In this document: one piece after another, positions 8,986 through 56,511 of the stretch | Layout of the letters: every line of letters starts with the position of its first letter | How positions within the stretch are numbered: the first letter of the stretch is position 1 | From: Bacteroidales bacterium | Lineage (GTDB): Bacteria > Bacteroidota > Bacteroidia > Bacteroidales > VadinHA17 | Assembly: GCA_009877105.1 (NCBI GenBank) | Contig: WXFD01000006.1 | Coordinates: 155,292-219,291, forward strand | Length of the DNA stretch: 64,000 nucleotides | Direction of reading: 5' to 3' | Made by a program: the position numbers and the translations under genes | The notes under the pieces: model-generated | The model's database searches: none | Seen by the model: only the letters and a program-made list of their open reading frames with translations | Told to the model about the DNA's origin: nothing

Positions 8986-10206
8986 ATGAACAGAGTAGTT
9001 ATAACCGGCATGGGGATTTACTCCTCGATTGGAAAGAACCTCGTGGAAGTAAATGATTCTCTTTACAGGGGCAAATCGGGAATCATCCTGGATCCGGCAA
9101 GAAAAGCTTTCGGCTATCAATCGGCCCTGACGGGGAAACTTGACAGGCCGGTACTGAAAGGACTTATTGACAGGAGATCCCGCGTCTGCATGCCCGAACA
9201 TGCCGAATATGCGTATATATCAACCATTGAAGCCCTGAAAACAGCCGGGCTAGACAATGACTACCTTGAACAGAACGAAGTGGGTATCCTGTTCGGCAAT
9301 GACAGCTCAATGTATCCTGTAGTAGAATGTGTTGACATAGTACGCGACAAGAAGGACTCCACGCTTGTCGGTTCAGGCTCAGTGTTTCAGTCAATGAATT
9401 CAACGGTGACAATGAACCTTTCCGTTATTTTCAAACTCAGGGGGATTAATTTCACCCTGAGCGGTGCGTGTGCAAGTGGCTCACATTCAATTGGGATGGG
9501 TTACTTCCTCATAAAGCACGGATATCAGAATACCATTATATGCGGAGGAGCACAGGAGGCGAATATTTATTGCGTGGTCAGCTTCGACGGGCTGGGGGCA
9601 TTCTCAAAACAGGAAACCGAACCTGAAAAAGCTTCCAGGCCCTTCGATAAGAGAAGAGACGGACTGGTTCCAAGCGGAGGTGCGGCAACCGTCATCCTTG
9701 AAAATCTCGACCATGCCCTCAAAAGAGGTGCACCCATCCTGGGCGAAGTGACGGGCTATGGCTTCTCCTCCGACGGGGTGCACATTTCCGTCCCTGATGT
9801 TGACGGCCCGGTGAGAGCCATCATGATGGCACTGAAAGATGCAGGAATTCAACCCGGCGATGTGGATTACATTAATGCTCACGCTACCTCCACACCCCTG
9901 GGTGACCAGAATGAAGCCAAGGCAATAGACAGGGTTTTCGGTAAAAACAAGCCCCCCGTATCTTCCACCAAATCAATGACCGGACATGAGATGTGGATGG
10001 CAGGAGCAAGTGAAATCGTATATTCACTGCTGATGATGCAGAACTCATATATCGCCCCGAACATCAACCTGGAAGAACCTGATGAATACTCTGCCGCACT
10101 GAATATCGTCAGGCAAACCACACCAATGGAATTTAATACCTTTCTTTCCAACTCATTCGGCTTCGGTGGAACAAATTCATGTTTAGTAATCAGGAAATTT
10201 CATTAA
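8986..10206 (+). CDS. beta-ketoacyl-ACP synthase (FabF/FabB-like KS)
   Basis: Catalytic triad context: SGACASGSHS (Cys), NAHATSTPLGD (His), SMTGHEMWMAG (His). C-terminal SFGFGGTN. Confidence 0.9.
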   Translation: MNRVVITGMGIYSSIGKNLVEVNDSLYRGKSGIILDPARKAFGYQSALTGKLDRPVLKGLIDRRSRVCMPEHAEYAYISTIEALKTAGLDNDYLEQNEVGILFGNDSSMYPVVECVDIVRDKKDSTLVGSGSVFQSMNSTVTMNLSVIFKLRGINFTLSGACASGSHSIGMGYFLIKHGYQNTIICGGAQEANIYCVVSFDGLGAFSKQETEPEKASRPFDKRRDGLVPSGGAATVILENLDHALKRGAPILGEVTGYGFSSDGVHISVPDVDGPVRAIMMALKDAGIQPGDVDYINAHATSTPLGDQNEAKAIDRVFGKNKPPVSSTKSMTGHEMWMAGASEIVYSLLMMQNSYIAPNINLEEPDEYSAALNIVRQTTPMEFNTFLSNSFGFGGTNSCLVIRKFH

Positions 10207-10229
10207 ATTTGCCCAAGTTTTTTTTAATC

Positions 10230-10478
10230 ATGACCAGAGAAGAAATTATAGGGATAATAAATAACCTGCTTATTGAAGAATTTGAGATTTCTGAAGCCCA
10301 GCTCATGCCCGGCGCCCATCTGAAAAATGATCTTGGACTTGAAAGCCTCGATTTTGTTGATATCGCGGTAATAGTGCAGAAGGAATTCGGACTTACCCTT
10401 AAGGGAGAGGAAATGACAACAATCACAACACTTCAAAGTCTTTACGATCACATAGCAAACCGTTACAACAAGAATTAA
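10230..10478 (+). CDS. acyl carrier protein
   Basis: 82 aa from the internal ATG. LGLESLDFVD is the phosphopantetheine-serine motif. Confidence 0.8.
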   Translation: MTREEIIGIINNLLIEEFEISEAQLMPGAHLKNDLGLESLDFVDIAVIVQKEFGLTLKGEEMTTITTLQSLYDHIANRYNKN

Positions 10479-10484
10479 CCTGAT

Positions 10485-11384
10485 GTGACTGACTGGAAAG
10501 GAAAAACCCGCGGGGGGTTGGCAGGATATAAGATATTCGTCACAGTTTTAAAATACCTCGGACTTTCTTTCGCATATTTTATTCTTTATTTCGTTGCTTT
10601 TTATTTCCTTTTTGCATCGCGGCAATCATTCGTTAATACATACCGCTTCTACCGCTTCAGGCTCGGCTTTGGATCTGTAAGATCGGTTCTATGTGTTTAC
10701 AGGAACTACTATACTTTCGGACAGGTTCTGCTCGACAAAACAGCCCTCCTTGCCGGTTTCGAAAATAAGTTCACCTTCACCTTTGATGGCGAGGATCACC
10801 TTAGAAACATGGTTGAGTCAGGTACCGGCGGACTGCTGGTAAGCGCACATGTCGGGAATTTTGAAATGGCCGGCAATATGCTTGAAAGACTTGATACACA
10901 AGTGAGTATAATCATGGTCGACGCGGAACATGAGAAAATCCGGGATTATCTTTCAACCCTTACCCGTAAGAGTTTCAATATAATTGCAATAAGGGAGGAT
11001 AATTCGCATATCCGCGAGATTGGCAGGGCCTTTGAAGAAAAGCAGATCGTTTGCATTCATGGCGACAGGTTCGTAAAAGGCAGCAAGATCATTCCCGCCT
11101 CATTCCTGGGCGAACGGGCATTCTTCCCCGGTGGCCCGTTCTACCTGGCCATGAAATTCAATGTCCCGTTGTCGTTTGTTTTTGCAATGAAGGAACCGGG
11201 AAAACACTATCATTTTTATGCAAGCCCTCCAAAAATCTTCAGTCTGCCGGGAAGCCAGCAAAAAAGGGACCTGGTAATAACGCAAATATTAAAAGAGTAT
11301 ATTTGTCAGCTGGAAACAATGACAGGCAGGTATCCTTTGCAATGGTTCAATTATTACAATTTCTGGGCTCCATATGAGCAATAG
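10485..11384 (+). CDS. LpxL/HtrB-like lipid A-type (lysophospholipid) acyltransferase
   Basis: N-terminal TM segment. SAHVGNFE matches the HX4(D/E) motif of late acyltransferases (HxGNWE type). Apparent GTG start; the adjacent ATG at 10483 is followed immediately by TGA. Confidence 0.75.
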   Translation: MTDWKGKTRGGLAGYKIFVTVLKYLGLSFAYFILYFVAFYFLFASRQSFVNTYRFYRFRLGFGSVRSVLCVYRNYYTFGQVLLDKTALLAGFENKFTFTFDGEDHLRNMVESGTGGLLVSAHVGNFEMAGNMLERLDTQVSIIMVDAEHEKIRDYLSTLTRKSFNIIAIREDNSHIREIGRAFEEKQIVCIHGDRFVKGSKIIPASFLGERAFFPGGPFYLAMKFNVPLSFVFAMKEPGKHYHFYASPPKIFSLPGSQQKRDLVITQILKEYICQLETMTGRYPLQWFNYYNFWAPYEQ

Positions 11385-12732
11385 AAGATTATTGCTGGTT
11401 TCAGCAAACAGGTTCACGGTGCCATACCCGGTATACCCTCTCGGGATCTCATACCTCAAGGCATACCTGAATGAGACGATGCCGTCACTGAAGATTGATG
11501 TATTCGATTTTATGACAGGGTCATTTGAAGATTACATAAAACTGCTTCATGAAATAAAACCTGATTTTACGGGAATATCGCTGCGGAACATAGATGATGT
11601 GAATATTTACAGACAGGAAAGTTTTATTTCACATTACAGGCAGATAATAAAAAGCACAAGGGAAAACAGCAGTTCAGTTATAGTAATCGGAGGTTCGGGA
11701 TTTTCAATTTATCCGGAATTGCTTTTTAAGACCCTGGAACCTGATTTCGCAGTATACGGTGAGGGGGAAATCAGTCTTGAAAAATTGCTGTCCGCCATTG
11801 AAAACAACCTCGACTATTCCACCATCGAAGGACTGCTTTACAGGGAACATGACAGGATAGTTTTCAACGAACGCAAGACCTTCTTCAATACTCCCACCCT
11901 GAGTTTTGACAGTGGCATGCTCGACTATTACTGGCAGAACAGCGGCATGCTGAATATCCAGACGAAAAGAGGCTGTCCTTATAACTGCATTTATTGCACA
12001 TATCCGCTTATAGAAGGACACAGGGTGAGAACGATCGATCCCGGCCGTATTGTGAAAACATTAACAGATCTGAAACACAGGTTCAATATAAACTACATCT
12101 TTTTTACCGACTCAGTCTTCAATATAAGCAACAGCTTCAACTACAGGCTGGCAGATAAAATGATCGAAGCTGAACTTGACATCCGGTGGGGAGGCTATTT
12201 CAATTTTGCAAACATCGACTTTAAGCTTCTGGAGAAACTCCGGCAGGCCGGTCTGAAGCATATTGAATTTGGAACAGAATCATTGTCTGACCGGATGCTG
12301 GAAAATTACAGGAAGCCCTTTACAGTATCCGAGGTCCTTGATATTTCCTCAGCCTGCAACGACCTTGAGATCGATTTTGCTCATTTTCTCATTCTTGGAG
12401 GTTACGGAGAAACGGAATCTACCCTGGCAGAGACCTTTGAAAATTCAAAAAAAATCAACCGGACAGTCTTCTTTCCCTTTATCGGTATGAGGATCTATCC
12501 CGGAACCCGGTTACACGAAATTGCTATCGCTGAAAAAGCAGTTAAACCCGACGATCCTTTGCTTGAACCTGTATATTATGTGTCACGGGAGATAGATATT
12601 GATACGTTGAAGGAGAAGGCAAAGCGCACCCAGAAACAGTGGATTTTTCCCGACGAGGACATGTCGTCCGCAATGATGCGGATGAGAAAAAGAAACAGGA
12701 AAGGGCCTCTCTGGGAGTATCTGTTAAAATAA
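11374..12732 (+). CDS. B12-binding-domain radical SAM protein
   Basis: N-terminal Rossmann-like B12-binding-type region followed by CPYNCIYCTYP (CX3CX2C). Overlaps the previous gene by 11 nt. Confidence 0.85.
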   Translation: MSNRRLLLVSANRFTVPYPVYPLGISYLKAYLNETMPSLKIDVFDFMTGSFEDYIKLLHEIKPDFTGISLRNIDDVNIYRQESFISHYRQIIKSTRENSSSVIVIGGSGFSIYPELLFKTLEPDFAVYGEGEISLEKLLSAIENNLDYSTIEGLLYREHDRIVFNERKTFFNTPTLSFDSGMLDYYWQNSGMLNIQTKRGCPYNCIYCTYPLIEGHRVRTIDPGRIVKTLTDLKHRFNINYIFFTDSVFNISNSFNYRLADKMIEAELDIRWGGYFNFANIDFKLLEKLRQAGLKHIEFGTESLSDRMLENYRKPFTVSEVLDISSACNDLEIDFAHFLILGGYGETESTLAETFENSKKINRTVFFPFIGMRIYPGTRLHEIAIAEKAVKPDDPLLEPVYYVSREIDIDTLKEKAKRTQKQWIFPDEDMSSAMMRMRKRNRKGPLWEYLLK

Positions 12733-12741
12733 TCCTGAATC

Positions 12742-13182
12742 ATGGAGCCATCTGATTACGATATACTGGATCTTATTCCCCAGCGCCGTCCCATGCTGAT
12801 GATCGACAGACTTGTGCATGCAGGGGAAAAATACGGGGAAGGTGTTTTTCGTGTCAGGGAATCGAATCCGCTTTGTCTCGGGAAACACCTGTCAGAGGCC
12901 GGGATCCTTGAGTGCATCGCCCAGACTGCTGCTGCATACACCGGTTACTTAAGATTGTCAGCAAAAAAGGATGTTGTCAGGGGTTATATAGGATCGGTAA
13001 AGAACCTTAAAATCCATTTTTTGCCCCGTGCAGGCGATGAAATCAGGGTTGGAATAACCCTCCAGGACGAGGTGCTTGGGTTCACCATTGTAACCGGCAG
13101 GATTGAGTGTCTCGGGAATCTGGTGGCCGAATGCGAAATCAGGATCCTTCTGGAGGAGCACGATATTATCCCGTCGGGTTGA
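12742..13182 (+). CDS. hotdog-fold 3-hydroxyacyl-ACP dehydratase (FabA/FabZ-like)
   Basis: 146 aa. LIPQRRPMLMIDRL... N-terminus and overall pattern typical of the FabZ-like dehydratases found in aryl polyene clusters. Confidence 0.7.
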   Translation: MEPSDYDILDLIPQRRPMLMIDRLVHAGEKYGEGVFRVRESNPLCLGKHLSEAGILECIAQTAAAYTGYLRLSAKKDVVRGYIGSVKNLKIHFLPRAGDEIRVGITLQDEVLGFTIVTGRIECLGNLVAECEIRILLEEHDIIPSG

Positions 13183-13217
13183 ACGGATAATGTTACACTA
13201 AACTGATATCGAATCCT

Positions 13218-13225
13218 TATATTTG
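13218..13225 (+). promoter_or_regulatory. candidate Bacteroidota -7 promoter box (TATATTTG = TAnnTTTG)
   Basis: Exact match to the TAnnTTTG consensus, about 22 nt upstream of the ATG at 13248, in the only sizeable gap (13183-13247) inside the plus-strand operon. No clear -33 TTTG was seen. Confidence 0.3.
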
Positions 13226-13247
13226 CAACTTTATTTACTCTTAAGTG

Positions 13248-13673
13248 ATGAAGGTAAGTGAGGTTCCCCAGGATAAGGGCTACCTGATTGAAGGCAGGAT
13301 AAGCGATCTGAATTATGCCATCGACAATGACGGGAGATATACCAGCCGGCAAAGCCGGGGCTGGAAACCCAAGAATGAAGCTATTAAATTCGCATGGGAC
13401 CAGGTTTATGAACATGCCGGCAAATTGCGGCAGCAGATCCTTGACGGAATCCTGAGCCCCATAGCCCTGTACATGGAGCTTAACCTGATGGATATTTCAA
13501 TCCTGGCAGGTTATACCGGTATCTCGAAAAGAAAAGTAAGAAAACATCTCAGGATGAAAGAGTTTCTTAAACTGCCGAAAGAAATGATCGATCGTTATGC
13601 CGAAGCTCTTAATATTACCGCTGAGGATCTTGTCAACATCGGAAAGATCAGGGAATTCAAATATGAAGATTGA
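13248..13673 (+). CDS. hypothetical protein with C-terminal helix-turn-helix-like segment
   Basis: 141 aa. ILAGYTGISKRKVRKHL looks like an HTH. No other recognisable motif. Confidence 0.5.
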   Translation: MKVSEVPQDKGYLIEGRISDLNYAIDNDGRYTSRQSRGWKPKNEAIKFAWDQVYEHAGKLRQQILDGILSPIALYMELNLMDISILAGYTGISKRKVRKHLRMKEFLKLPKEMIDRYAEALNITAEDLVNIGKIREFKYED

Positions 13674-14667
13674 GTTTGAACACAGGCAGGCGGCTCATTG
13701 CGAGAACGGGGTAACAGCAGGTCTGCTAAGGTACTACGGTATTGACCTGAGTGAGCCAATGGTTTTTGGGACCGGATCGGGCATTTTCTTCTCCCACATG
13801 GTATTCATCAGGGTCAACGAAATGGCTGTGACTTCCTTTCGCGTCTGGCCCGGGGTAATTTTCAAAAGGGTTACCAAACGATTCGGGGTCAGTATAAAAT
13901 GGCGGAAATTTCGCGATCCCGACAAGGCAATGCAGGCGCTTGACAGTTTGCTTGCACGGGGTATTCCTGTAGGAATGCTTGTCGGCGTATTCAATCTTCC
14001 TTATTTTCCAAAGGAATATAGGTTCCATTTCAACGCGCATAATATCACTGTTATTGGAAAGGAGGGTGATAAATATCTTATCAGCGATCCCGTAACCGAA
14101 AACGTTGAGAGCCTTACATATGATGAACTCAAAAAAGTGAGGTTCGCAAAGGGAACGGTTCCCCCGAAGGGCAGAATGTACTATGTTACTTCAATGCCGG
14201 AGAAATTCGATTTAAAATCTGCGATAATAAAGGGAATCCGAAAAACAGCCAATGACATGATCAACATTCCCCTGCCAATGTTTGGCGTGAAGGGTATACG
14301 TTACCTGGCAGGAAAAATGCGGGAATGGCCCTCAAAACTCGGAGACAGGTCAGCTGTAATGAACCTGGGACAGGTTATACGGATGCTTGAGGAAATTGGC
14401 ACGGGAGGTGCCGGATTCAGGTTCATTTATGCCGCCTTTCTCCAGGAAAGCGCCAGGGTATTGCAACTGCCCGTACTTGATGAACTCAGTGTCGAAATGA
14501 CCGGTGCCGGCGACAGGTGGCGGGAATTTGCCTGGCAGGCTTCCCGCTGTTTCAAGAATCGCGACAACGGGGAAATTACATACGATATGCTGGCAGACAT
14601 ACTTTTGGACATTGCAGCAAGGGAAGAAAGGGTCTTCAGGCAGCTCGGACAATTAAAATTCACATGA
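13663..14667 (+). CDS. BtrH_N / DUF4872-like protein (papain-fold acyl-carrier transferase/peptidase-like)
   Basis: From the internal ATG: MKIEFEHRQAAHCENGVTAGLLRYYG, the HCE(N/T)G motif typical of the BtrH N-terminal domain. Overlaps the previous gene by 11 nt, and its stop overlaps the next start (ATGA). Confidence 0.65.
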   Translation: MKIEFEHRQAAHCENGVTAGLLRYYGIDLSEPMVFGTGSGIFFSHMVFIRVNEMAVTSFRVWPGVIFKRVTKRFGVSIKWRKFRDPDKAMQALDSLLARGIPVGMLVGVFNLPYFPKEYRFHFNAHNITVIGKEGDKYLISDPVTENVESLTYDELKKVRFAKGTVPPKGRMYYVTSMPEKFDLKSAIIKGIRKTANDMINIPLPMFGVKGIRYLAGKMREWPSKLGDRSAVMNLGQVIRMLEEIGTGGAGFRFIYAAFLQESARVLQLPVLDELSVEMTGAGDRWREFAWQASRCFKNRDNGEITYDMLADILLDIAAREERVFRQLGQLKFT

Positions 14668-15416
14668 CCATCCGGACCGCAATCGAAATAAAAAACCTGA
14701 CAAAAAGATACAGGGGAAATCCCCAACCTGCTGTAAACGGGGTGAGTCTTGATATAGAAGAAGGCCATTTCTTCGGACTGCTTGGTCCAAACGGTGCAGG
14801 CAAGACCACCATGATAAAGATCATGTGCGGACTGCTTTCACCTTCCTCCGGGGAAGTGACCATAGGAGGCTTATCACTCAGGAAACAGCTGCCTGAAATT
14901 AAAAGATCAATAGGGATTGTACCCCAGGACATCGCTTTGTATTCAACTCTTACTGCCAGGGAAAATCTGAAAATCTTTGGCGGATTATACGGGATTCCTG
15001 CAAGGAAACTGAAAGAGCGCATCGATAAGTGGTTCAGCATCTTTGGGCTTGAAAAAAACCGGGAACAAACAATCGGGTCATACTCCGGAGGTATGAAACG
15101 CAGGCTTAATCTTATTGCCGGTATTCTTCATGAACCGAAGATCCTTTTCCTCGATGAACCTACAGTAGGAATAGACGTACAGTCAAAAAAAGTCATAACC
15201 GAAAACCTCAGGGAAATCAATCAGGGAGGTACAACAATCGTGTATACCTCCCATTACCTCGAGGAAGCGGAAAGTCTTTGCTCTTCCATTGCCATCATTG
15301 ATCAGGGTGTGATAATAATAAAAGGCACAATGGAGGAGATCAGATCGGAAACCAACAATATGTCAAAACTGGAGGATATCTTTCTTCAGCTTACAGGTAT
15401 GGAGCCAAGAGACTGA
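14664..15416 (+). CDS. ABC transporter ATP-binding protein
   Basis: Walker A GPNGAGKTT, signature YSGGMKRR, Walker B ILFLDEPT. The start was moved to MTIRTAIEIKNLTK (ATGA overlap with the upstream stop). Confidence 0.9.
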   Translation: MTIRTAIEIKNLTKRYRGNPQPAVNGVSLDIEEGHFFGLLGPNGAGKTTMIKIMCGLLSPSSGEVTIGGLSLRKQLPEIKRSIGIVPQDIALYSTLTARENLKIFGGLYGIPARKLKERIDKWFSIFGLEKNREQTIGSYSGGMKRRLNLIAGILHEPKILFLDEPTVGIDVQSKKVITENLREINQGGTTIVYTSHYLEEAESLCSSIAIIDQGVIIIKGTMEEIRSETNNMSKLEDIFLQLTGMEPRD

Positions 15417-26111: not shown

Positions 26112-27227
26112 TCAAGGTGTAATAAACTTAAGGCAAACCGGGCTCTTTGTATCAAAATTTGAAATTTGCGGTCCCGGTATTCCTGAAACCGGATCAATTT
26201 TATGAACCGAAATATTATTGGAATTCTGGTTTCCCACAAGAATGTACTTCCCTGACGGATCAATTACAAAGTTCCTTGGCCATTCCCCTCCGCAGGGTGT
26301 AAAGCCTGCTACGGAAACCCTGCCATCGGCAGATATTTTGAACGTTGTGATTGAGTTATCTCCACGGTTTGAACCATAGACAAATTTGCCGTCATTAGAA
26401 ACGTGTATGTCGCCGCAGTAGCTTTTACCGGTGAACTCCGGGGGCAGTGCTGACAGGGTCTGGATCTCGGTTAAATTTCCGTTTTTTGCAACGTCAAAAA
26501 CCGTCAGGGTGGAATTAAGCTCATTGACCACATACATTTTGGACCCGTCCTTTCCAAAGGCAAAGTGTCGTGGTCCCGCTCCCTTTGCAAGTTGAGCATA
26601 CCCGGTGTTCTTAAGCTTTCCTGAAGCCTTGTCGAGGTCATAGATTGCTATCCGGTCGAGCCCGAGATCGGTGAGATAAATCTTCTTTCCTTCAGGGCCG
26701 GGGGCTATCATGTGCGGGTGAGAGCGTGTCCCTTCAGGACCCCTGAAAATAATTGTGTCACTTACTTCCGAAGGAACACCTCCGGCATCAAGTCTGACCA
26801 CTGCCACCGAGCCGCTTCCATAATTTGCAATCAGCAGGTAGTCTTCCCCAGGTGAAAGAGAAACATAGCACGGGCCGCCGGTGGGAACTGCAAGATCTGT
26901 GATCTTTTCAGCCGTTCCTTTTTTTATGTCGAGTTTTAGTGTGGTAACACTGCCGCTTCTCTGACCATTGAATCTGCCGACCTCATTTATTGCATATAAC
27001 ATACTGTTCTTTCTGGAAATGCAGAAATATGAAGGATTGATACCGGCATCATTTTCCGAAATGGCTGCGATGGTGCCCCTGGCAAAATCAACATCGAGTA
27101 CCAGTAGTCCTTTCTCTCCCTGTCCGGCGTATTTTCCTGCATAAAGCCGCGATACCTGTCCGTCTGCTGTTCCGAAGCCGATCAACATCATTATCAGAGT
27201 AAGCAATGAATAAATCTTTCTTTCCAT
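26112..27227 (-). CDS. secreted 7-bladed beta-propeller lactonase (6-phosphogluconolactonase/YbhE-like family)
   Basis: Signal peptide, then repeated ...GxxPRHFxF.. / ..YVxNExSNTLTVF-type blades (GPRHFAFGKDG, VVNELNSTLTVF, VGNQNSNNISVH). Confidence 0.8.
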   Translation of the reverse strand: MERKIYSLLTLIMMLIGFGTADGQVSRLYAGKYAGQGEKGLLVLDVDFARGTIAAISENDAGINPSYFCISRKNSMLYAINEVGRFNGQRSGSVTTLKLDIKKGTAEKITDLAVPTGGPCYVSLSPGEDYLLIANYGSGSVAVVRLDAGGVPSEVSDTIIFRGPEGTRSHPHMIAPGPEGKKIYLTDLGLDRIAIYDLDKASGKLKNTGYAQLAKGAGPRHFAFGKDGSKMYVVNELNSTLTVFDVAKNGNLTEIQTLSALPPEFTGKSYCGDIHVSNDGKFVYGSNRGDNSITTFKISADGRVSVAGFTPCGGEWPRNFVIDPSGKYILVGNQNSNNISVHKIDPVSGIPGPQISNFDTKSPVCLKFITP

Positions 27228-27267: not shown

Positions 27268-28206
27268 TTAAAAATTGTCACAATCCCTGTAGGCCTGGAT
27301 CACCCGGGCCTCACCTTCCCTGGTTTTTTCCCTGATCCCGTGTTCCATGCATATCACTCCGTCATAATTCCTGCTGTGAATGTATTTAAACACATTTTTG
27401 TAATTGATCTCTCCCGTTCCGGGCTCGTTTCTCCCGGGGTTGTCGCCGCAATGAAAGGCGCCTATTTCATCCCAGGCTGCTTCAATGTTGGGAATAATGT
27501 TCCCTTCCGTTATCTGCTGATGGTAGATATCATTTATGATCTTGCATGATTTCCTGTTTACAGCCCTGCAGATGGCAAAGGCCTGGGGAATTCCGGTCAG
27601 GAACAATCCCGGATGGTCGTGCAGCACGTTGAGTGGTTCAAGTACTATGGTGAGTCCTGCCGGTTCAACAATATCGCAGCAATATCTCAGGTTATCAATC
27701 ACATTGGCAGTCTGGAAATCCCGGTGCAGCCTTTCGTCATAACGGCCGGGGACGACGAGTGCAAATCTGGCTCCCGTCCGCTTTGATACTTCGACGCCTT
27801 CCTTCATTTTACCGATCAGCATTTGCCTGATCTCCGGCTTGTTCAGAACGAAAGATGTTACCCCGAAATCTGCGTAGAGAACAAAGGGACCAAAATCCAT
27901 TCCAAGCCGTCTGAGTTCACCAGTCAACAATTCCTGGTCTGCAACCGGCCTGCTCATCAGTCCGTTGTCAAACATGGCCCTGAAGCCCATATCATGACAG
28001 AACTTAATATTGTCGATAATATCTGTACCGGCATGTTCCCTGAACATGCCGATTGAGGGAGCATATTTGAGCTTAAAGGGAGCAACGGCCTCAGGGGCTT
28101 TTTTCGCGGCCTGTTTTTTCTGGCTGCCCGACAGAACAGGAGCTGCCATTATGGCGGCTCCTGTCGCAGTTGCCTTCTTAATGAAATCCCTTCTTGAATT
28201 ATCCAT
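27268..28206 (-). CDS. xylose-isomerase-like TIM-barrel protein (sugar phosphate isomerase/epimerase family) with Tat-type signal
   Basis: MDNSRRDFIKKATATGAAIMAAP is a twin-arginine signal. The barrel pattern resembles hydroxypyruvate isomerase. Confidence 0.8.
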   Translation of the reverse strand: MDNSRRDFIKKATATGAAIMAAPVLSGSQKKQAAKKAPEAVAPFKLKYAPSIGMFREHAGTDIIDNIKFCHDMGFRAMFDNGLMSRPVADQELLTGELRRLGMDFGPFVLYADFGVTSFVLNKPEIRQMLIGKMKEGVEVSKRTGARFALVVPGRYDERLHRDFQTANVIDNLRYCCDIVEPAGLTIVLEPLNVLHDHPGLFLTGIPQAFAICRAVNRKSCKIINDIYHQQITEGNIIPNIEAAWDEIGAFHCGDNPGRNEPGTGEINYKNVFKYIHSRNYDGVICMEHGIREKTREGEARVIQAYRDCDNF

Positions 28207-28236: not shown

Positions 28237-29574
28237 TTAAGCCTGGGGAACATATGGCAGGCCGGCAATCGGCACTTCCTTAGGAATATCAACCGGACCG
28301 AAAACAAACACCTTGGGACCAAGCTTCAGATCCGAGTTCATCATTTCTTCGTAAGTTGTTTCCTTGCCCGTGTAAGCCGACACGCGGCCCATAATGGCCA
28401 CCATGGTGGAAATTGCGGTATTTTCCAGTTCATTGAATGGTTTGCCTGTGCGTATTGCGGTTACAAGATCGATATGCTCCTGAACATATGGATCAACGCT
28501 TACGGTGTTCGTAGGTTTCTGATCCTTGTCGAGAGGGTATTCATATTTCCATATTTCTTCACCGTCAAGGCTGAGAATTGAATTCTGGCAGTTCGTGGAT
28601 CCCTTGGTACCCTGAAGGCGTTCCGAGACATTATTGGCACAGCCGTTTATCTGGCGGCACATGCTGTGAATATGGGTTCCGTTTTCAAATGTATAGTCGA
28701 CGCTGAAATTATCATACTGGTCGCCGGTTACACGTCTGAGCCTCGATCCCATACCGACTGCCTTGACGGGATGTTTGCCTGTGAACCAGTTTGCCACATC
28801 CAGGTTATGAACATGCTGTTCAACAATATGATCGCCCGACAGCCACGTCCAGTTGACCCAGTCACGGATCATCCATTCCATTTCCGTCCAGTCGGGGTTT
28901 TTATCGCGGTGCCATAGCTTCCCTCCGTTCCACCATACATTTCCTCCCGTCAGTTCGCCGATAATCCCCTGCTGAACCTGCTGCCAGGTGGCGACATAAT
29001 CGCGCTGGTGACGGCGCTGGGTACCGGTTACAATACTAAGTTCCAAGCCCTCGGCTTTCTTTGCAGTTGCCATAACCGACCTGGCTCCTACCGGGTCCAC
29101 GCAAACAGGTTTCTCGGAAAAAATATGCTTCCTGGCCTGAACGGCTGCGGCCAGGTGTTCCGGTCGGAAAAATGGAGGAGTGGCAAGAATGACAATATCA
29201 ACTCCTGAATCTATTACCTTCTGATAGGCATCGAATCCAACGAAGCAGTTCTCAGCAGGCACTTCCTGGCCTTTCTCCTGAAGAATTCTCTCCCTGCAAT
29301 TGTCGACGCGATCCTTGAAGGTGTCCGCAAGGGCGGTTACCTGAAGATTTGGACCGGCACTAAGGAAGTTGATCGCTGCCCCTGTTCCGCGTCCTCCGCA
29401 ACCGATCACGCCGGCTTTAAGCACCGCTCCGTCGGGAGCCTGATCTAGAAAATTTGGTACTGCAACAACTTTTCTGGGCTGGCTGCTGCATCCTGTAATA
29501 ATTGTTGGCAATACTATCCCTGCAGCTGCAGCTTTGCCAAAAAAATCACGTCTTGAGATACTGGATTTTTTCAT
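28237..29574 (-). CDS. Gfo/Idh/MocA-family NAD(P)-dependent oxidoreductase with Tat-type signal
   Basis: SRRDFFGKAAAAG twin-arginine signal, GVIGCGGRGTGAA Rossmann motif and EKP motif (IFSEKPV). Confidence 0.85.
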   Translation of the reverse strand: MKKSSISRRDFFGKAAAAGIVLPTIITGCSSQPRKVVAVPNFLDQAPDGAVLKAGVIGCGGRGTGAAINFLSAGPNLQVTALADTFKDRVDNCRERILQEKGQEVPAENCFVGFDAYQKVIDSGVDIVILATPPFFRPEHLAAAVQARKHIFSEKPVCVDPVGARSVMATAKKAEGLELSIVTGTQRRHQRDYVATWQQVQQGIIGELTGGNVWWNGGKLWHRDKNPDWTEMEWMIRDWVNWTWLSGDHIVEQHVHNLDVANWFTGKHPVKAVGMGSRLRRVTGDQYDNFSVDYTFENGTHIHSMCRQINGCANNVSERLQGTKGSTNCQNSILSLDGEEIWKYEYPLDKDQKPTNTVSVDPYVQEHIDLVTAIRTGKPFNELENTAISTMVAIMGRVSAYTGKETTYEEMMNSDLKLGPKVFVFGPVDIPKEVPIAGLPYVPQA

Positions 29575-29681
29575 GTCGGAAAGGATTTATGAATATCTTA
29601 ATAAAATACTGGCTATCAAGGCAACTGTAACTAATCAAATGTAAATATAGTTATTTTAAATTATCATTGTCAGGCCTTTAT

Positions 29682-31220
29682 TTAAGGTTTTTTAACTTCC
29701 TTTCCCGTCTTTTCATCATACTCACACACAACCCTGAATCCCACATTAAAACAGTCTGAATACCACCAGATGCTTTTAGGCATTTGCGGATCTGTTTTCA
29801 GCCACGCTTCAGTCCTGGTATAATCGCGTGCTGCACTGCGGACCAATCCTGCCGGATTCATGAAACTTCCACCACGGATAACATGCTCCGAACCTGTTTC
29901 AGGTCCTTTCGGATCCCGGATGGTTCCTCCGGGATATTCCGAATATGCATTTGGCTGATACCAGTCGGAACAGAACTCGGCAACGTTCCCCAGCATATTG
30001 ATCAATCCAAACGGGTTTGGCTTCACAAAATCAGGAGGCTGGGTTTTAGACGGGCTGTTTTCGTTATAAACTACATAGCTGTTGATGACAGCCGTATCAT
30101 TTTTGGATATCCTTGCCCTGAGCCCCGACTTCTCGAATTTTCTCGGATCACCTTCAAAAAAGTAAGGTCCGGTCGTACCTGCCCTGCAGGCATACTCCCA
30201 TTCAGCTTCAGTGGGCAGCCTGTAATTTTTTCCGGTCACCTGCGACAGCCATTTGCAATAAGTCTCAGCAGCATGGAAGGAGAACGAAATAGCAGGGCGT
30301 TGTCCCAGGCCCCATCCCTGGTCGGGCTGGCCGTAAGGCGGGGTAGCCCCGGAAATGGCATCAGTCCTGGCCCCTGCCGAAATTTCGTTTCTGAGCCCTT
30401 CCGTATCGGTTGAGCGCCCCTCAACTGAAGTCTGCACATAGAATGCCAGGTACTCATCCCACGTTACCTCTGTCTGCCCCATGAAGAACGGACTTATCTC
30501 AACCGTCCTCACCGGTCCTTCATCGGGCTTTCTGAAAGGTTCATCCTCAGGACTGCCCATTTCAAACGTTCCTCCCGGAATTGCAACCATTTCGAAAGAA
30601 ACGGATGAGGCCGGAATCTTTTCCGTGAAATTTTCAAACCCGGTGACAATAGCAGGTTCGGAAAAGATTTCCTTTGGAGCTGAGGATACCTTGCCGAATG
30701 TTACATTGCTCCCGTGAGTGTAGCCCTCAATGTAGTGACCGGCATTCAGATGACAGTTAATACAGTACAGATCAGGAGTCTTTGGCTGCTGGGTATAATA
30801 CAGATGCGCATCCTCCCCCTCTTTTGTGAGCTTTGCAGGAAAAAGATTCTCATGGCATTTGATACAGGAGCTTTCATAAACATGCTTCCTGGCATATTCA
30901 AGCCGTCCTTTTGCTTCCCAGTCAAAGGAAGCCGAATCCCTGAAAATATAGCTCCACAGATCGCGCAGCCCGGTTTTTCCTTTTTCCCAAAGAAACCCCT
31001 CTCCCTTTGGGGGCAGATGACACTCGGCACATCCTACCCGATAGCCGGATTTTGTATCATAATGAACTGACTTCTTCCATTCAGCATCAGCAACGGGATG
31101 AATGTGACAAGAAACGCAGAACTTATTGGTTGAGGTTATATCCACCGCCCGCTGGGCACCAAGTATGACAAGCGCCCCGGCAATCAGCCCCGGGGTGAAC
31201 CATAACATGAGTTTCTTCAT
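29682..31220 (-). CDS. membrane-anchored NapC/NirT-type tetraheme cytochrome c fused to an FGE-sulfatase (SUMF1-like) domain
   Basis: N-terminal TM helix, then four CXXCH motifs (CVSCH, CAECH, CIKCH, CINCH). The C-terminal half has YRLPTEAEWEYACRAG, GLINMLGNVAEF and VIRGGSF, the hallmarks of the FGE-sulfatase fold. Confidence 0.8.
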   Translation of the reverse strand: MKKLMLWFTPGLIAGALVILGAQRAVDITSTNKFCVSCHIHPVADAEWKKSVHYDTKSGYRVGCAECHLPPKGEGFLWEKGKTGLRDLWSYIFRDSASFDWEAKGRLEYARKHVYESSCIKCHENLFPAKLTKEGEDAHLYYTQQPKTPDLYCINCHLNAGHYIEGYTHGSNVTFGKVSSAPKEIFSEPAIVTGFENFTEKIPASSVSFEMVAIPGGTFEMGSPEDEPFRKPDEGPVRTVEISPFFMGQTEVTWDEYLAFYVQTSVEGRSTDTEGLRNEISAGARTDAISGATPPYGQPDQGWGLGQRPAISFSFHAAETYCKWLSQVTGKNYRLPTEAEWEYACRAGTTGPYFFEGDPRKFEKSGLRARISKNDTAVINSYVVYNENSPSKTQPPDFVKPNPFGLINMLGNVAEFCSDWYQPNAYSEYPGGTIRDPKGPETGSEHVIRGGSFMNPAGLVRSAARDYTRTEAWLKTDPQMPKSIWWYSDCFNVGFRVVCEYDEKTGKEVKKP

Positions 31221-31485
31221 AAATTTAAAAATGTGCGGGTCAAGATAAAAAATAATCTCATTCGTAAAACTGAATAAATCATGATTTAAAAGGAAAAAGT
31301 GAATTTTTAAAATTCAGGACGAATCCCGGCAAGCATTTCTTATTTTTACGATTTCTGACAAGAAGATATAACACACATGACTGACAAAAATTCAAATATG
31401 AATGAAAATAATCGTGTTCAATCATTTATGATTCCCTGCCGCGGGAGTCAGACAGGCATACGAACAAAAACAATTAATTATTTTT

Positions 31486-31592
31486 ATATGAAACCCACAT
31501 GATACAAAATCACAAACAAGCATGAAAATAAAATCCATTTTGGACTCCATGTGAATCACTTAACATTCAGTAGTATATAAAATTCTTCTCAC
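31486..31592 (+). promoter_or_regulatory. conserved leader, copy A (paralogous to 63418..63522)
   Basis: About 83 percent identity, with 2 single-base gaps, to the sequence directly upstream of the ATG at 63523. Similarity begins at atatgaaaccc and ends at the start codon. Confidence 0.6.
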
Positions 31593-33023
31593 ATGAAAAA
31601 GTATTTTTTTATTGCCATATTCCTAATTCTGAATTTCACCCTGCTGGCTCATCCGTGGAAACCATCACATTATGTAATAATCGATACCGACGGAGGAATA
31701 GACGATATGAGGGCAATAACAATGTTCCTGGCATCGCCCGATGTAAGGGTTCTGGCTGTTATCGCCTCATCCGGCACCCTTTCCGCTGAAAATACCTACA
31801 GGAAGGTAAGGAGCCTGCTGAACTCCTATTTTCATGAAGGGGTACCGGTGGGAATAAACAGCAGTGTAAGTTTCAAATCACCAGATATCAGCATGGCACT
31901 GAAAACACAGTGGGGTGATGAAACAAACCTGTCACCGCAGGATGCACCGGCGGCCCTGGATCTAATCAGCTGGGTCTTTTCCGAGGAAAAGACCCAAATA
32001 TCATTTGTTTCGCTTGGAGGACTGACAACTGCATGGACGGCATTTAACGCGATCCCGTCGTTCAGCCGGCAGGTGAAAGAGATTGTTTGGAGTGCTGATG
32101 GATTTTCGGATACCAAAGGATTCAATTACAATATTGATAAAAAGGCTGCGGCAGGTATACTGAAAGGGAGTATTCCCGTAAAAATCATAAAGCCGGCCGG
32201 TGAAAAGGAGTTTTATAACACTGAACTGATTGCGGATATATCCGGGATATGCAGTATCTATGCAGAAAAGTTATCTGTTTTTTTCAGTTCTGCAACTGAT
32301 GCCGGACATGATTTTATATATGCCGCGACCGATGAAACGATCCCTCTTTTTATTCATTTTCCGGCGCTGTTCAATACAACTGCCTCCGGTATTAATTCAG
32401 AATCCCGGGCAGCTGATATAAATCAACTGAGGGAAAAGACCCTGGCAATTCTGAAAGGAGAAACAGTTGAACGGAACCAGGTGATAAAGGAATTTCCAGA
32501 TAATCCGGCATTCTATTTCGACGATCTGAAGGATCATGTTTCAGAAATTATAAAAAAATACGGTATTGATGAATGGAGTTCAGGTGTATTGGCCAACGAA
32601 CTTCACCGGCATCTAGGAGTGTTCGCCATTATAGGCGTCAAAATGGGAATTAGGGCAAGGGAATATTTCAACACCGGTGTCGATGAATTCAGGACCACAT
32701 CCTATGCCGGGTCCATTACCCCGGTAAGCTGTTTCAACGACGGTCTGCAGGTTAGCACTGGATCCACTCCCGGGCATGGATTGCTGAAGGTGGTCGACGA
32801 TGTACCGGCAAAACCAATGGCGGAATTCAGTTATATGAACAGGAAGATCAGACTCACCCTGAGGCCTGATATTGCCGAAAAGATCATCTCCGAACTGAAA
32901 GAGATCAATTTTATTTACGGGCTCGACAGTAATATTTACTGGGAGCTTGTAAGGAAGAACACCATCAGGTACTGGCTCAGTCTCGACAGGCACGAGATAT
33001 TTGAAATTGAGGAAATAATTTAG
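31593..33023 (+). CDS. secreted fusion: nucleoside hydrolase-like domain + FmdE-like domain
   Basis: Signal peptide. VIIDTDGGIDDMRA is the DXDXXXDD motif of inosine-uridine nucleoside hydrolases. C-terminal HRHLGVFAIIGVKMG...CFNDGLQVSTGSTPGHG resembles the FmdE/FwdE domain motifs. Confidence 0.6.
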   Translation: MKKYFFIAIFLILNFTLLAHPWKPSHYVIIDTDGGIDDMRAITMFLASPDVRVLAVIASSGTLSAENTYRKVRSLLNSYFHEGVPVGINSSVSFKSPDISMALKTQWGDETNLSPQDAPAALDLISWVFSEEKTQISFVSLGGLTTAWTAFNAIPSFSRQVKEIVWSADGFSDTKGFNYNIDKKAAAGILKGSIPVKIIKPAGEKEFYNTELIADISGICSIYAEKLSVFFSSATDAGHDFIYAATDETIPLFIHFPALFNTTASGINSESRAADINQLREKTLAILKGETVERNQVIKEFPDNPAFYFDDLKDHVSEIIKKYGIDEWSSGVLANELHRHLGVFAIIGVKMGIRAREYFNTGVDEFRTTSYAGSITPVSCFNDGLQVSTGSTPGHGLLKVVDDVPAKPMAEFSYMNRKIRLTLRPDIAEKIISELKEINFIYGLDSNIYWELVRKNTIRYWLSLDRHEIFEIEEII

Positions 33024-55356: not shown

Positions 55357-56511
55357 TCATTTCCTGTTCCACCCTTCTGCCACTGCCCTGACAAAAGGAA
55401 GGCAGTGCCGGAAAAATGCCTTATATCCGGAGCACAGGTAATTCAATCCCGGCTCTCCATCGGGAGCTGTAATAAACCTGTTCTTCGGACATTCTCCGTT
55501 ACACATGGTCCTTACATCGCATATTTTGCAATAATACGGAAGTGAACATGACTTGGCAAGGCCGAAAGCTTTCTGCTTGTCACTGTACAGAAGTCCGGCT
55601 ACCGAATTATTCCCGATGTTGCCTACGAGATTTTCGCTGTTCACAAAATGGTCGCACGAGTAAAAATCCCCGTTTGCCTCAATAACCGGGACCGCTCCGC
55701 AATTTTCCCTGAAGATGCATAAGGTATGTTCCTGGTTGAACGCGGTTCGCGCTGCTTCTTCGAAGATCTGGATTTTGATCCTCCCGATGTCCTTCTCAAC
55801 CCACTCGTCAAATATCGCTATCAGGAAACTGCCAAATGCATCGGCACTGACTGATGCCGGGGAAACACCTCCCGGCAGATCAGGCCGGGGCTCAACAAGT
55901 GGCAGAAAGGTAATATTTTCAGCTCCGATATTCCTGAAAAAATCATAGACTGCCAATGGATACTCTGCATTGAATGAATTTACAACACAGAGGATTTCGG
56001 CTGAGACGCCTTCCTGCATAAGCATTTCAAAGCCTCTCAGGGTCTCAGAAAATGAAGTCCGGCCCGAAGGGCCCCTTCTGAAATGATTATGCAGCTCGCC
56101 CGGACCATCCATGCTGACGCCAACTATGAAATTTTCCATCCTGAATAACCATGTCCAATCCCGGTCGATCAATGTAGAATTAGTCTGTATCCCGTTTATT
56201 GCTGACTTTCCCCGGGGCAAATGTCTTCTCTGAAATTCAAGGGCTTTCCTGTAAAAGTCAATACCCGCGAGCAACGGCTCTCCTCCGTGCCAGGAGAAAA
56301 AGACAACAGGCCCCTCCGTGGCCTCAATATGCTGAATAATATATTTCCCGAGTATCTCATCGGTCATCAGCAAATCTGATCCGTCATGGTAAAGGGATAA
56401 TTTATCAAGGTAATAACAATATCGGCACCGGAGATTGCATCTGGCACCTGCAGGTTTGACGAAAATCTGAAATTCAGGCAGGTAATTTTGTGTTTCAGTC
56501 ATCCCATTCAA
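55357..56511 (-). CDS. anaerobic sulfatase-maturating enzyme (radical SAM/SPASM)
   Basis: KPAGARCNLRCRYCYY is a CX3CX2C motif. Cys-rich SPASM C-terminus (CDHF...CSLPYYCKICDVRTMCNGECPKNR). Confidence 0.85.
   Translation of the reverse strand: MNGMTETQNYLPEFQIFVKPAGARCNLRCRYCYYLDKLSLYHDGSDLLMTDEILGKYIIQHIEATEGPVVFFSWHGGEPLLAGIDFYRKALEFQRRHLPRGKSAINGIQTNSTLIDRDWTWLFRMENFIVGVSMDGPGELHNHFRRGPSGRTSFSETLRGFEMLMQEGVSAEILCVVNSFNAEYPLAVYDFFRNIGAENITFLPLVEPRPDLPGGVSPASVSADAFGSFLIAIFDEWVEKDIGRIKIQIFEEAARTAFNQEHTLCIFRENCGAVPVIEANGDFYSCDHFVNSENLVGNIGNNSVAGLLYSDKQKAFGLAKSCSLPYYCKICDVRTMCNGECPKNRFITAPDGEPGLNYLCSGYKAFFRHCLPFVRAVAEGWNRK

Follow-up and report, generated by a model that had tools for sequence, protein, structure and literature searches.

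A conserved fusion of a NapC/NirT-type tetrahaem domain to a formylglycine-generating-enzyme-like domain, encoded beside a Tat-exported Gfo/Idh/MocA dehydrogenase, as a candidate electron outlet to menaquinone in Bacteroidales

The stretch of DNA analysed here, called the window throughout, comprises 64,000 nucleotides from a Bacteroidales bacterium (assembly GCA_009877105.1, contig WXFD01000006.1, positions 155,292 to 219,291 of the forward strand), and the gene under study occupies positions 29682 to 31220 of it. This open reading frame (ORF) begins with ATG, encodes 512 residues, and joins a NapC/NirT-type tetrahaem domain to a domain resembling the formylglycine-generating enzyme (FGE) of sulfatase maturation. 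A first-pass annotation made from the letters of the DNA had proposed the ORF; its existence was borne out, and it lies on the minus strand, which that annotation had left unstated. The four strings quoted there (RLPTEAEWEYACRAG, GNVAEF, RGGSF, and MNPAGLVRSAARDYT) are all present in the translation. On the same strand, beyond a 107-nt AT-rich spacer (29575 to 29681), lie the genes for a Gfo/Idh/MocA NAD(P)-type dehydrogenase of 445 residues (28237 to 29574; PF01408, PF22725, and PF02894), which is predicted to be exported by the twin-arginine translocation (Tat) pathway and probably lipidated; a xylose-isomerase-like TIM-barrel protein of 312 residues with a Tat signal (27268 to 28206; PF01261), which is a frequent third member of such loci; and a secreted 7-bladed lactonase of 371 residues (26112 to 27227; PF10282, E = 1.2e-97), a clade-specific fourth member.

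The tetrahaem domain (PF03264, Cytochrom_NNT) covers residues 4 to 163 (30732 to 31211, minus strand, as for all features of the fusion gene below) and scores 89.7 bits against a cut-off of 24.1 (E = 2.4e-25). It opens with a transmembrane anchor at residues 5 to 27 (31140 to 31208), which is recognizable as a hydrophobic stretch after MKK, is modeled by AlphaFold2 (AF2) as a helix over residues 2 to 29, and aligns with the membrane helix of NrfH. The four haem-binding motifs follow as CVSCH (C35-H39, 31104 to 31118), CAECH (C64-H68, 31017 to 31031), CIKCH (C119-H123, 30852 to 30866), and CINCH (C153-H157, 30750 to 30764), so that the single membrane helix and four CxxCH motifs described earlier near the N terminus are all in place. 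The four motifs are invariant in the alignment of the clade, as are K80 and D87 of the segment KGKTGLRD (30960 to 30983), a candidate quinol-site pair. The only sequence relative of residues 1 to 175 in the PDB is NrfH of D. vulgaris (2j7a_C), and in this weak alignment (E = 0.008), K80 and D87 are matched to the Lys and Asp within FKAIAGARD of NrfH, a pair that we take to line the NrfH quinol site; the equivalent Lys is reportedly essential in CymA (PMC2762525). A cytochrome c assembly gene (PF01578), prerequisite for haem attachment, was found in the genome by profile search, together with two other weak PF03264 matches.

An N-terminal membrane helix and four CxxCH motifs are shared with NrfH, CymA, NapC, and cytochrome cM552, a family that connects redox enzymes of the periplasm with the quinone pool and of which cytochrome cM552 may work toward quinone reduction. 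The window protein differs from these in its additional C-terminal, non-haem FGE-fold domain of about 300 residues, and the first haem motif is followed by I-H (CHIH), where NrfH has I-M (CHIM). The partners differ as well: those of the NrfH-type families are multihaem or molybdo-reductases, whereas the partner proposed here would be an NAD(P)-type dehydrogenase. A tetrahaem anchor with a fused C-terminal domain that serves one periplasmic enzyme is also the design of TorC/DorC, in which the extra domain is a monohaem cytochrome rather than an FGE fold carrying at most a flavin. Assignment as a TorC-type pentahaem cytochrome was rejected, as the TorC model TIGR02162 matches only residues 9 to 181 and reaches 72.4 bits against a cut-off of 478.2, and no fifth haem motif is present, there being no CxxCH downstream of residue 157.

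After an interdomain linker (residues 164 to 209, 30594 to 30731), which appears floppy in the AF2 model at residues 160 to 182 (predicted local distance difference test [pLDDT] below 50), the FGE-fold domain and its family-specific C-terminal extension occupy residues 210 to 500 (29721 to 30593). PF03781 (FGE-sulfatase) spans residues 210 to 466 with an E value of 4.4e-46, and the model shows a confident FGE fold from residue 190 (pLDDT mostly above 90), interrupted by a low-confidence loop at residues 268 to 289. In a Foldseek search, PvdO came first (5hha, E = 4e-19), followed by FGE structures at about 1e-16, with further matches to T. denticola variable protein 1 (2y3c), CalU17, ToxD, EgtB, and PorK, and a sequence search of the PDB returned FGE chains at 1e-26. 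The framework motifs of aerobic FGE/SUMF1 (RLPTEAEWEYA, GNVxE, and RGGS) are retained. What remains of the FGE catalytic loop, RGGSF...SAAR (29826 to 29876), lacks the two copper-binding cysteines: RGGSF-MNPAGLV-RSAAR (RGGSFMNPAGLVRSAAR) is shorter than the loop of FGE, N455 aligns with the residue that is the first catalytic Cys in T. curvata FGE, and no conserved Cys was found in the RGGS-to-AAR loop among about 60 fused and stand-alone relatives aligned. The earlier description of the domain as cysteine-less thus holds for the catalytic pair only, since five cysteines elsewhere (C322, C345, C417, C490, and C499) are invariant in the clade. Because the catalytic pair is missing, the FGE-like domain is judged from its alignment to be unable to make formylglycine.

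This agrees with the earlier statement that the protein is not a sulfatase maturase; the genome has a radical-SAM maturase, the anaerobic one reported at 55357 to 56511 of the window, which was recovered there on the minus strand (TIGR03942, 405 bits, above the cut-off). Membership in two other families of this fold was rejected, the scores being below the equivalog cut-offs: the best NCBIfam model was PvdO (dihydropyoverdine dehydrogenase, NF051459) with 113.6 bits against 500, and GldK (TIGR03525), the model for GldK/PorK, gave 104.9 bits against 350. The domain instead belongs to an orthogroup with two signatures of its own, the segment D-A-[IV]-[ST]-x-[PA]-[TS]-x-P-[YWF] and the C-terminal TDPQxPKSxWW (TDPQMPKSIWWYSD in the window protein, 29754 to 29795), the latter absent from true FGE; within it, D477, P478, P481, S483, W485, and W486 are invariant in fused and stand-alone forms. 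The other FGE-like ORF of the genome (459 residues, contig C11) is a separate gene.

The fusion is genuine and conserved. A word-indexed search scored at least 8000 homologues, and all 120 of those listed carry both Pfam domains at 74 to 100% identity; they come mostly from metagenome-assembled genomes (MAGs) of Bacteroidales, and one cluster is identical to the window protein. Close relatives occur in 311 species-level genomes, and full-length fused relatives down to 38% identity were recovered when 1.8 billion representatives were searched exhaustively without a profile. When a 52%-identical relative served as the seed of a second search, 119 more two-domain proteins were listed, some of them from MAGs labeled Acidobacteriota/Terriglobia, KSB1, or Latescibacteria, where the identity is about 50%. 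The architecture (NapC plus FGE-sulfatase) is common, and the possibility raised in the first-pass annotation of an artefactual joining of two genes is answered by a single ORF that recurs in hundreds of independent assemblies and in contigs of RNA libraries. An 80%-identical copy on a 2.6-kb contig (JAFGFM010000146.1, locus L006) stands in a MAG labeled Deltaproteobacteria; this label is probably a binning error, because the identity to Bacteroidales copies is high. In an even sample of 400 Bacteroidota genomes, three have the fused form and about 35 more have a stand-alone orthologue, which matches residues 190 to 510 at 36 to 45% identity and starts within the linker, after a signal peptide of its own. 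Public databases name these proteins "formylglycine-generating enzyme" (required for sulfatase activity) or "SUMF1/EgtB/PvdO family nonheme iron enzyme." A search of the literature, with most subscription journals outside its scope, found no published description of the fusion architecture or of the pairing between FGE-like and Gfo proteins, and papers on flavinylation and on the evolution of multihaem proteins contained none either, in line with the earlier remark that no described function was known for this arrangement.

It is the distant loci that are decisive for the partner gene, and the recurrent downstream gene there is the orthologue of the window's dehydrogenase. All 12 distant tetrahaem-fused metagenome loci with enough DNA have it as the next gene on the strand of the fusion, at 37 to 74% identity to the 445-residue protein. 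In the even Bacteroidota sample, an orthologue (37 to 64% identity) is immediately downstream on the same strand at 17 of 20 loci and adjacent but divergent at one more, and 15 of the paired loci encode the FGE-like protein in its secreted, stand-alone form. The dehydrogenase is found within two genes at 20 of 33 non-tetrahaem metagenome loci, the TIM-barrel protein accompanies 11 of the 20 Bacteroidota-sample loci, and the lactonase is present at 30 of the 80 close loci. Synteny among the 80 closest loci is by itself nearly uninformative, as whole neighborhoods (fumarase, metallo-β-lactamase hydrolase, esterase) are kept among kin. For this reason, the upstream nucleoside-hydrolase/FmdE gene of the window and the class I fumarase gene were not counted as functional partners. 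The former (31593 to 33023, plus strand), whose secreted product joins an inosine-uridine nucleoside-hydrolase-like domain to FmdE and which diverges from the cytochrome gene, keeps its position in 62 of these 80 loci, which among close kin implies no functional link.

The dehydrogenase has the Rossmann motif GxGxxG, EKP, and a conserved D-H...H block. Its N terminus carries a Tat signal (SRRDFF) and, further on, ...PTIITGC with a lipobox-like Cys, which suggests a Tat-exported lipoprotein in the window's clade; where the FGE-like protein stands alone, its partner orthologue has the Tat signal and no Cys. Its nearest solved relatives, all with weak scores, are inositol dehydrogenases, DgpA, and sugar 3-ketoreductases, and the PDB relatives of the TIM-barrel protein include 3-keto-D-glucoside 4-epimerase. 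In close relatives whose fusion gene is not followed by the dehydrogenase, TIM-barrel, and lactonase genes, a SusC/SusD pair comes next instead, and in five of five such relatives, the dehydrogenase orthologue (83 to 87% identity) was found 9 to 20 kb downstream on the same contig; the module of these SusC/SusD-bearing relatives sits within a polysaccharide-utilization-type locus. The insert, seen in many close relatives (L007, L008, L010, L013, and others at about 9800 to 15200; L101), contains SusC/SusD and two opposite-strand genes of 589 and 516 residues, one with a CxxCH motif. In two Bacteroidota genomes (L083 and L084, 8976 to 16174), a stand-alone FGE-like gene has no Gfo/Idh/MocA orthologue after it, and the downstream ORFs are of 180 residues, about 330 to 395 residues, about 780 residues with two CxxCH motifs, and about 477 residues with one. 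A complex of the FGE-like domain (residues 185 to 512) and the mature dehydrogenase (residues 45 to 445) with NAD and flavin mononucleotide (FMN) was also predicted; the ipSAE values of 0.34, 0.00, and 0.00, obtained without controls, count neither for nor against binding.

The orthogroup of the FGE-like domain is joined to haem proteins in several further ways. Some orthologues carry, as a fusion, one or two monohaem domains of the PSCyt1 ("Planctomycete cytochrome C") type (L123, 5230 to 6966; L132, 309 to 1760; L156, 4864 to 6957), and others stand directly after a Tll0287-like CxxCH protein (L100, 7255 to 7911; L134, 5135 to 5782). The gene directly upstream of one stand-alone orthologue encodes a pyrroloquinoline quinone (PQQ)-type glucose/sorbosone dehydrogenase that begins with a cytochrome c domain (L139, 4383 to 5876). 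At L123, an ORF of 707 residues with seven CxxCH motifs adjoins the PSCyt1-fused gene. Because several unrelated c-type haem modules attach to the same orthogroup, these arrangements argue that the FGE-like domain would work in electron transfer rather than as a passive scaffold.

The two-electron carrier that such a role would call for may be a covalently attached flavin. The motif flavinylated by ApbE reads D-x-x-[ST]-G-A-[ST] (PMC12052999). Residues 287 to 293 of the window protein, D287-A-I-S-G-A-T293 (30342 to 30362), match it exactly, with T293 as the candidate FMN carrier, and the match stands at the end of the low-confidence, probably flexible loop of the AF2 model. DAI[ST]GAT is present in 120 of 120 members of the clade; in a mixed sample, [ST]-G-[AP]-T is found in all 21 tetrahaem-fused forms. 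The Asp and the final Thr/Ser are kept in nearly all aligned fused and stand-alone forms, and the Gly at position 5 is fixed in all sampled tetrahaem fusions and rare elsewhere. The genome encodes a single ApbE (PF02424, 266 bits) on contig C58, beside nqr, and the native targets NqrC (DAISGGT; C58, 59559 to 59843) and RnfG (DAITAAT; C43, 338522 to 338776) vary at the G/A positions and fit the consensus worse than does the DAISGAT protein. As judged from the family, the FGE-like domain should be extracytosolic, because an N-in anchor precedes it, as do c-type haem motifs, the maturation of which is extracytoplasmic. An exact motif, an exposed loop, and an extracytosolic redox protein are what it would share with the ApbE-flavinylated carriers (NqrC, RnfG, NosR, PplA, DUF2271, and DUF3570; Meheust et al. 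2021, PMC8238504), from which it differs in having an FGE-like fold in place of FMN_bind and a motif that degrades to G-P-T or R-P-[TS] elsewhere in the orthogroup. Two flavinylation surveys, PMC8238504 among them, contain no mention of FGE, sulfatase, NapC, or Gfo. Overall, the chance that the window protein is flavinylated appears to be about even or a little better.

Parts of the stretch were found in 19 runs of RNA libraries, the contigs of which were used for presence and bridging only, not for depth or gaps in cover. One 2713-nt contig of an activated-sludge metatranscriptome corresponds to 28645 to 31357 with zero differences, and a 739-nt contig of a second activated-sludge study corresponds to 29198 to 29936, likewise with zero differences. 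Both span the 107-nt spacer between the fusion and dehydrogenase genes and are compatible with co-transcription of the two. No terminator-like hairpin was found in the spacer; a TAnnTTTG-like box was seen by eye at 29636 to 29643, and a scan for sigma-70 promoters and terminators, not built for Bacteroidota promoters, gave nothing decisive there. The leader upstream of the divergent nucleoside-hydrolase/FmdE gene (31487 to 31592) has an RNA-contig depth of 25.7 versus about 7, and contigs of four RNA runs bear several different sequences left of 31486 to 31489, as loose ends; the leader behaves as a multi-copy element in these contigs.

The interpretation that we favor, with somewhat more confidence than doubt, is that the fusion protein is a haem, and probably a haem-flavin, membrane-anchored electron outlet from the periplasmic Gfo/Idh/MocA dehydrogenase to menaquinone. 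The Tat-exported dehydrogenase would use its bound NAD(P) to oxidize a sugar or glycoside, and the FGE-like domain would dock onto it and accept two electrons, in the window's clade probably onto an FMN held on Thr293 by a phosphoester made by ApbE. The flavin would then hand the electrons singly to the four c-type haems of the NapC/NirT module, which would reduce menaquinone at a site near the membrane. Further conversion of the oxidized sugar would fall to the TIM-barrel protein and the lactonase. In this scheme we infer, rather than observe, the physical docking, the flavinylation, the direction of the electrons, and the identity of the substrate. The direction toward menaquinone is preferred on account of textbook potentials and of the secreted lactonase, the latter suggesting a net oxidation of aldose; the midpoint potentials are about -320 mV for the NAD(P)H couple and about -74 mV for menaquinone. 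The proposal extends the earlier suggestion that a covalently attached tetrahaem domain connects a periplasmic FGE-fold module with the menaquinol pool, a suggestion that fits the intact NapC/NirT domain, the cytochrome c maturation gene, and the conserved fusion.

The architecture is assembled from known kinds of parts, namely a NapC/NirT anchor, a possible ApbE-type flavin tag, and a Gfo/Idh/MocA dehydrogenase, and two characterized systems come close to the proposed pathway. Three-subunit membrane sugar dehydrogenases, in which an FAD glucose or glucoside-3-dehydrogenase is accompanied by a cytochrome c and a small Tat protein as the other two subunits, likewise pass electrons from periplasmic sugar oxidation to the respiratory chain via cytochrome c, but their catalytic subunit is of the FAD/glucose-methanol-choline type. 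Glucose-fructose oxidoreductase of Zymomonas is, like the dehydrogenase proposed here, a Tat-exported Gfo/Idh/MocA protein; it has non-exchangeable NADP and works with a periplasmic lactonase, whereas its electrons go to fructose and not to a cytochrome. To our knowledge, no NAD(P)-type Gfo/Idh/MocA enzyme has been found wired to haems.

Several observations weigh against this proposal. The docking and the attached flavin rest on sequence and gene context, and most characterized NapC/NirT proteins draw electrons from the quinol pool. The canonical flavinylation motif is not shared by the whole orthogroup: the second fused clade, which includes the Acidobacteriota-labeled MAGs, has G-P-T in 115 of 119 proteins, and [ST]-R-P-[TS] prevails among the stand-alone and PSCyt1-fused orthologues, which keep the same dehydrogenase partner. 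We know of no ApbE target with R-P-[TS]. Because the canonical G-A is confined to the Bacteroidales-type clade, the conserved loop may serve another purpose, and flavinylation across the family has lower odds than that of the window protein. True FGEs, moreover, align a D-A-V-V loop at the motif position. The motif was rejected as proof of flavinylation by itself, since exact matches occur in 10 of about 3200 ORFs of the genome, among which RnfD and NqrB are the only known targets and seven look like chance. Nor is adjacency to the dehydrogenase obligatory, the latter being within the fetched 8 kb at only 36 of the 80 close loci. A paralogue of the dehydrogenase with 55% identity (contig C13, 29904 to 31229; L103, 7887 to 9260, minus strand), also found at 54 to 56% identity in five related genomes, adjoins its own Tat-signal TIM-barrel gene (298 residues) and an 841-residue lipoprotein with no FGE-like or haem gene. 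The bridging contigs of the RNA libraries, finally, may derive from carried-over DNA.

The alternative that survives best, unlikely as we consider it, reverses the flow: the tetrahaem module would oxidize quinol and, as a redox reset, re-reduce the non-exchangeable NAD(P) in a redox-neutral glycoside pathway with the TIM-barrel protein, or would drive a net reduction of keto-sugars. Quinol oxidation is indeed what the characterized NrfH, NapC, CymA (PMC3340143 and PMC2762525), and TorC carry out, the TIM-barrel partner is similar to keto-sugar epimerases and isomerases, and the paralogous pair on contig C13, devoid of FGE-like and haem genes, is what a self-contained chemistry would lead one to expect. 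Transfer from menaquinol to NAD(P)+ would, however, be strongly uphill between the potentials given above without an input of energy, and the gene string also encodes a secreted lactonase, which suggests that aldose is, on balance, oxidized to lactone.

Next in rank, and a shade more improbable, is a non-redox scaffold, in which the FGE fold would be a docking, glycan-binding, or assembly module that keeps the dehydrogenase or another partner at the membrane, DAISGAT would be an accident of an ancestral loop, and any electrons would pass directly between the haems and some other partner. The fold is reused non-catalytically in PorK of the type IX secretion system rings and in immunity proteins of the type VI secretion system, and PorK is among the PDB matches; the stand-alone orthologues that keep the partner without the motif G-A, the related loop of true FGEs, and the chance matches elsewhere in the genome are also compatible with it. 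A scaffold would, however, make it hard to explain why c-type haem modules have become attached to the orthogroup by three or more separate routes or why the Gly at position 5 is fixed in the sampled tetrahaem fusions and rare elsewhere, and the hydride of NAD(P)H would normally need a two- to one-electron converter ahead of the haem.

Still less probable is that catalysis resides in the FGE-like domain, which would act in the periplasm, as PvdO does, as an oxidoreductase on a small molecule or sugar derivative, with the haems as its sink or source and the Gfo/Idh/MocA enzyme as the next step of the pathway. PvdO, the best match in both the Foldseek and NCBIfam searches, is a periplasmic protein whose FGE fold likewise lacks the catalytic Cys pair and which is required for a periplasmic oxidation. 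It has no haem domain, however, its C terminus differs from the signature TDPQxPKSxWW, the score of the window protein is far under the family cut-off, and no pyoverdine genes lie nearby; furthermore, the domain is tightly paired, one to one and in several phyla, with just one dehydrogenase orthogroup, which resembles a relationship between subunits, not successive steps. That the protein is a genuine haem-assisted sulfatase maturase, as the public annotations of its relatives read, or a product of faulty assembly or annotation is very improbable indeed, since both copper-binding cysteines are absent in every aligned relative, the catalytic loop is shorter than in FGE, the adjacent genes include no sulfatase, an anaerobic maturase is encoded elsewhere in the window, and the single ORF recurs across independent assemblies and, without differences, in RNA contigs.

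Returning to the electron outlet to menaquinone, we advance a broader form of it only tentatively, as a possibility that we would not yet bet on: the FGE fold would be a new carrier of ApbE-attached FMN, forming a haem-flavin wire from Tat-exported Gfo/Idh/MocA sugar dehydrogenases to menaquinone, and this would amount to an undescribed, widespread periplasmic sugar respiration in anaerobic Bacteroidales and in the lineages labeled Acidobacteriota, KSB1, and Latescibacteria, with the stand-alone and PSCyt1-fused forms doing the same with other cytochromes. For annotation, the consequence is immediate, as thousands of genomes label this protein as sulfatase-maturing or as a "nonheme iron enzyme," and its sequence rules out a maturase. 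If the outlet proposed here is true, it would provide a route by which periplasmic dehydrogenases with non-exchangeable nicotinamide, such as many Tat-exported Gfo/Idh/MocA enzymes of Bacteroidota, shed their electrons; the FGE fold would join the folds of flavinylated electron carriers, and sugars would gain a respiratory entry in anaerobes that are dominant in sludge, sediments, fens, and guts.

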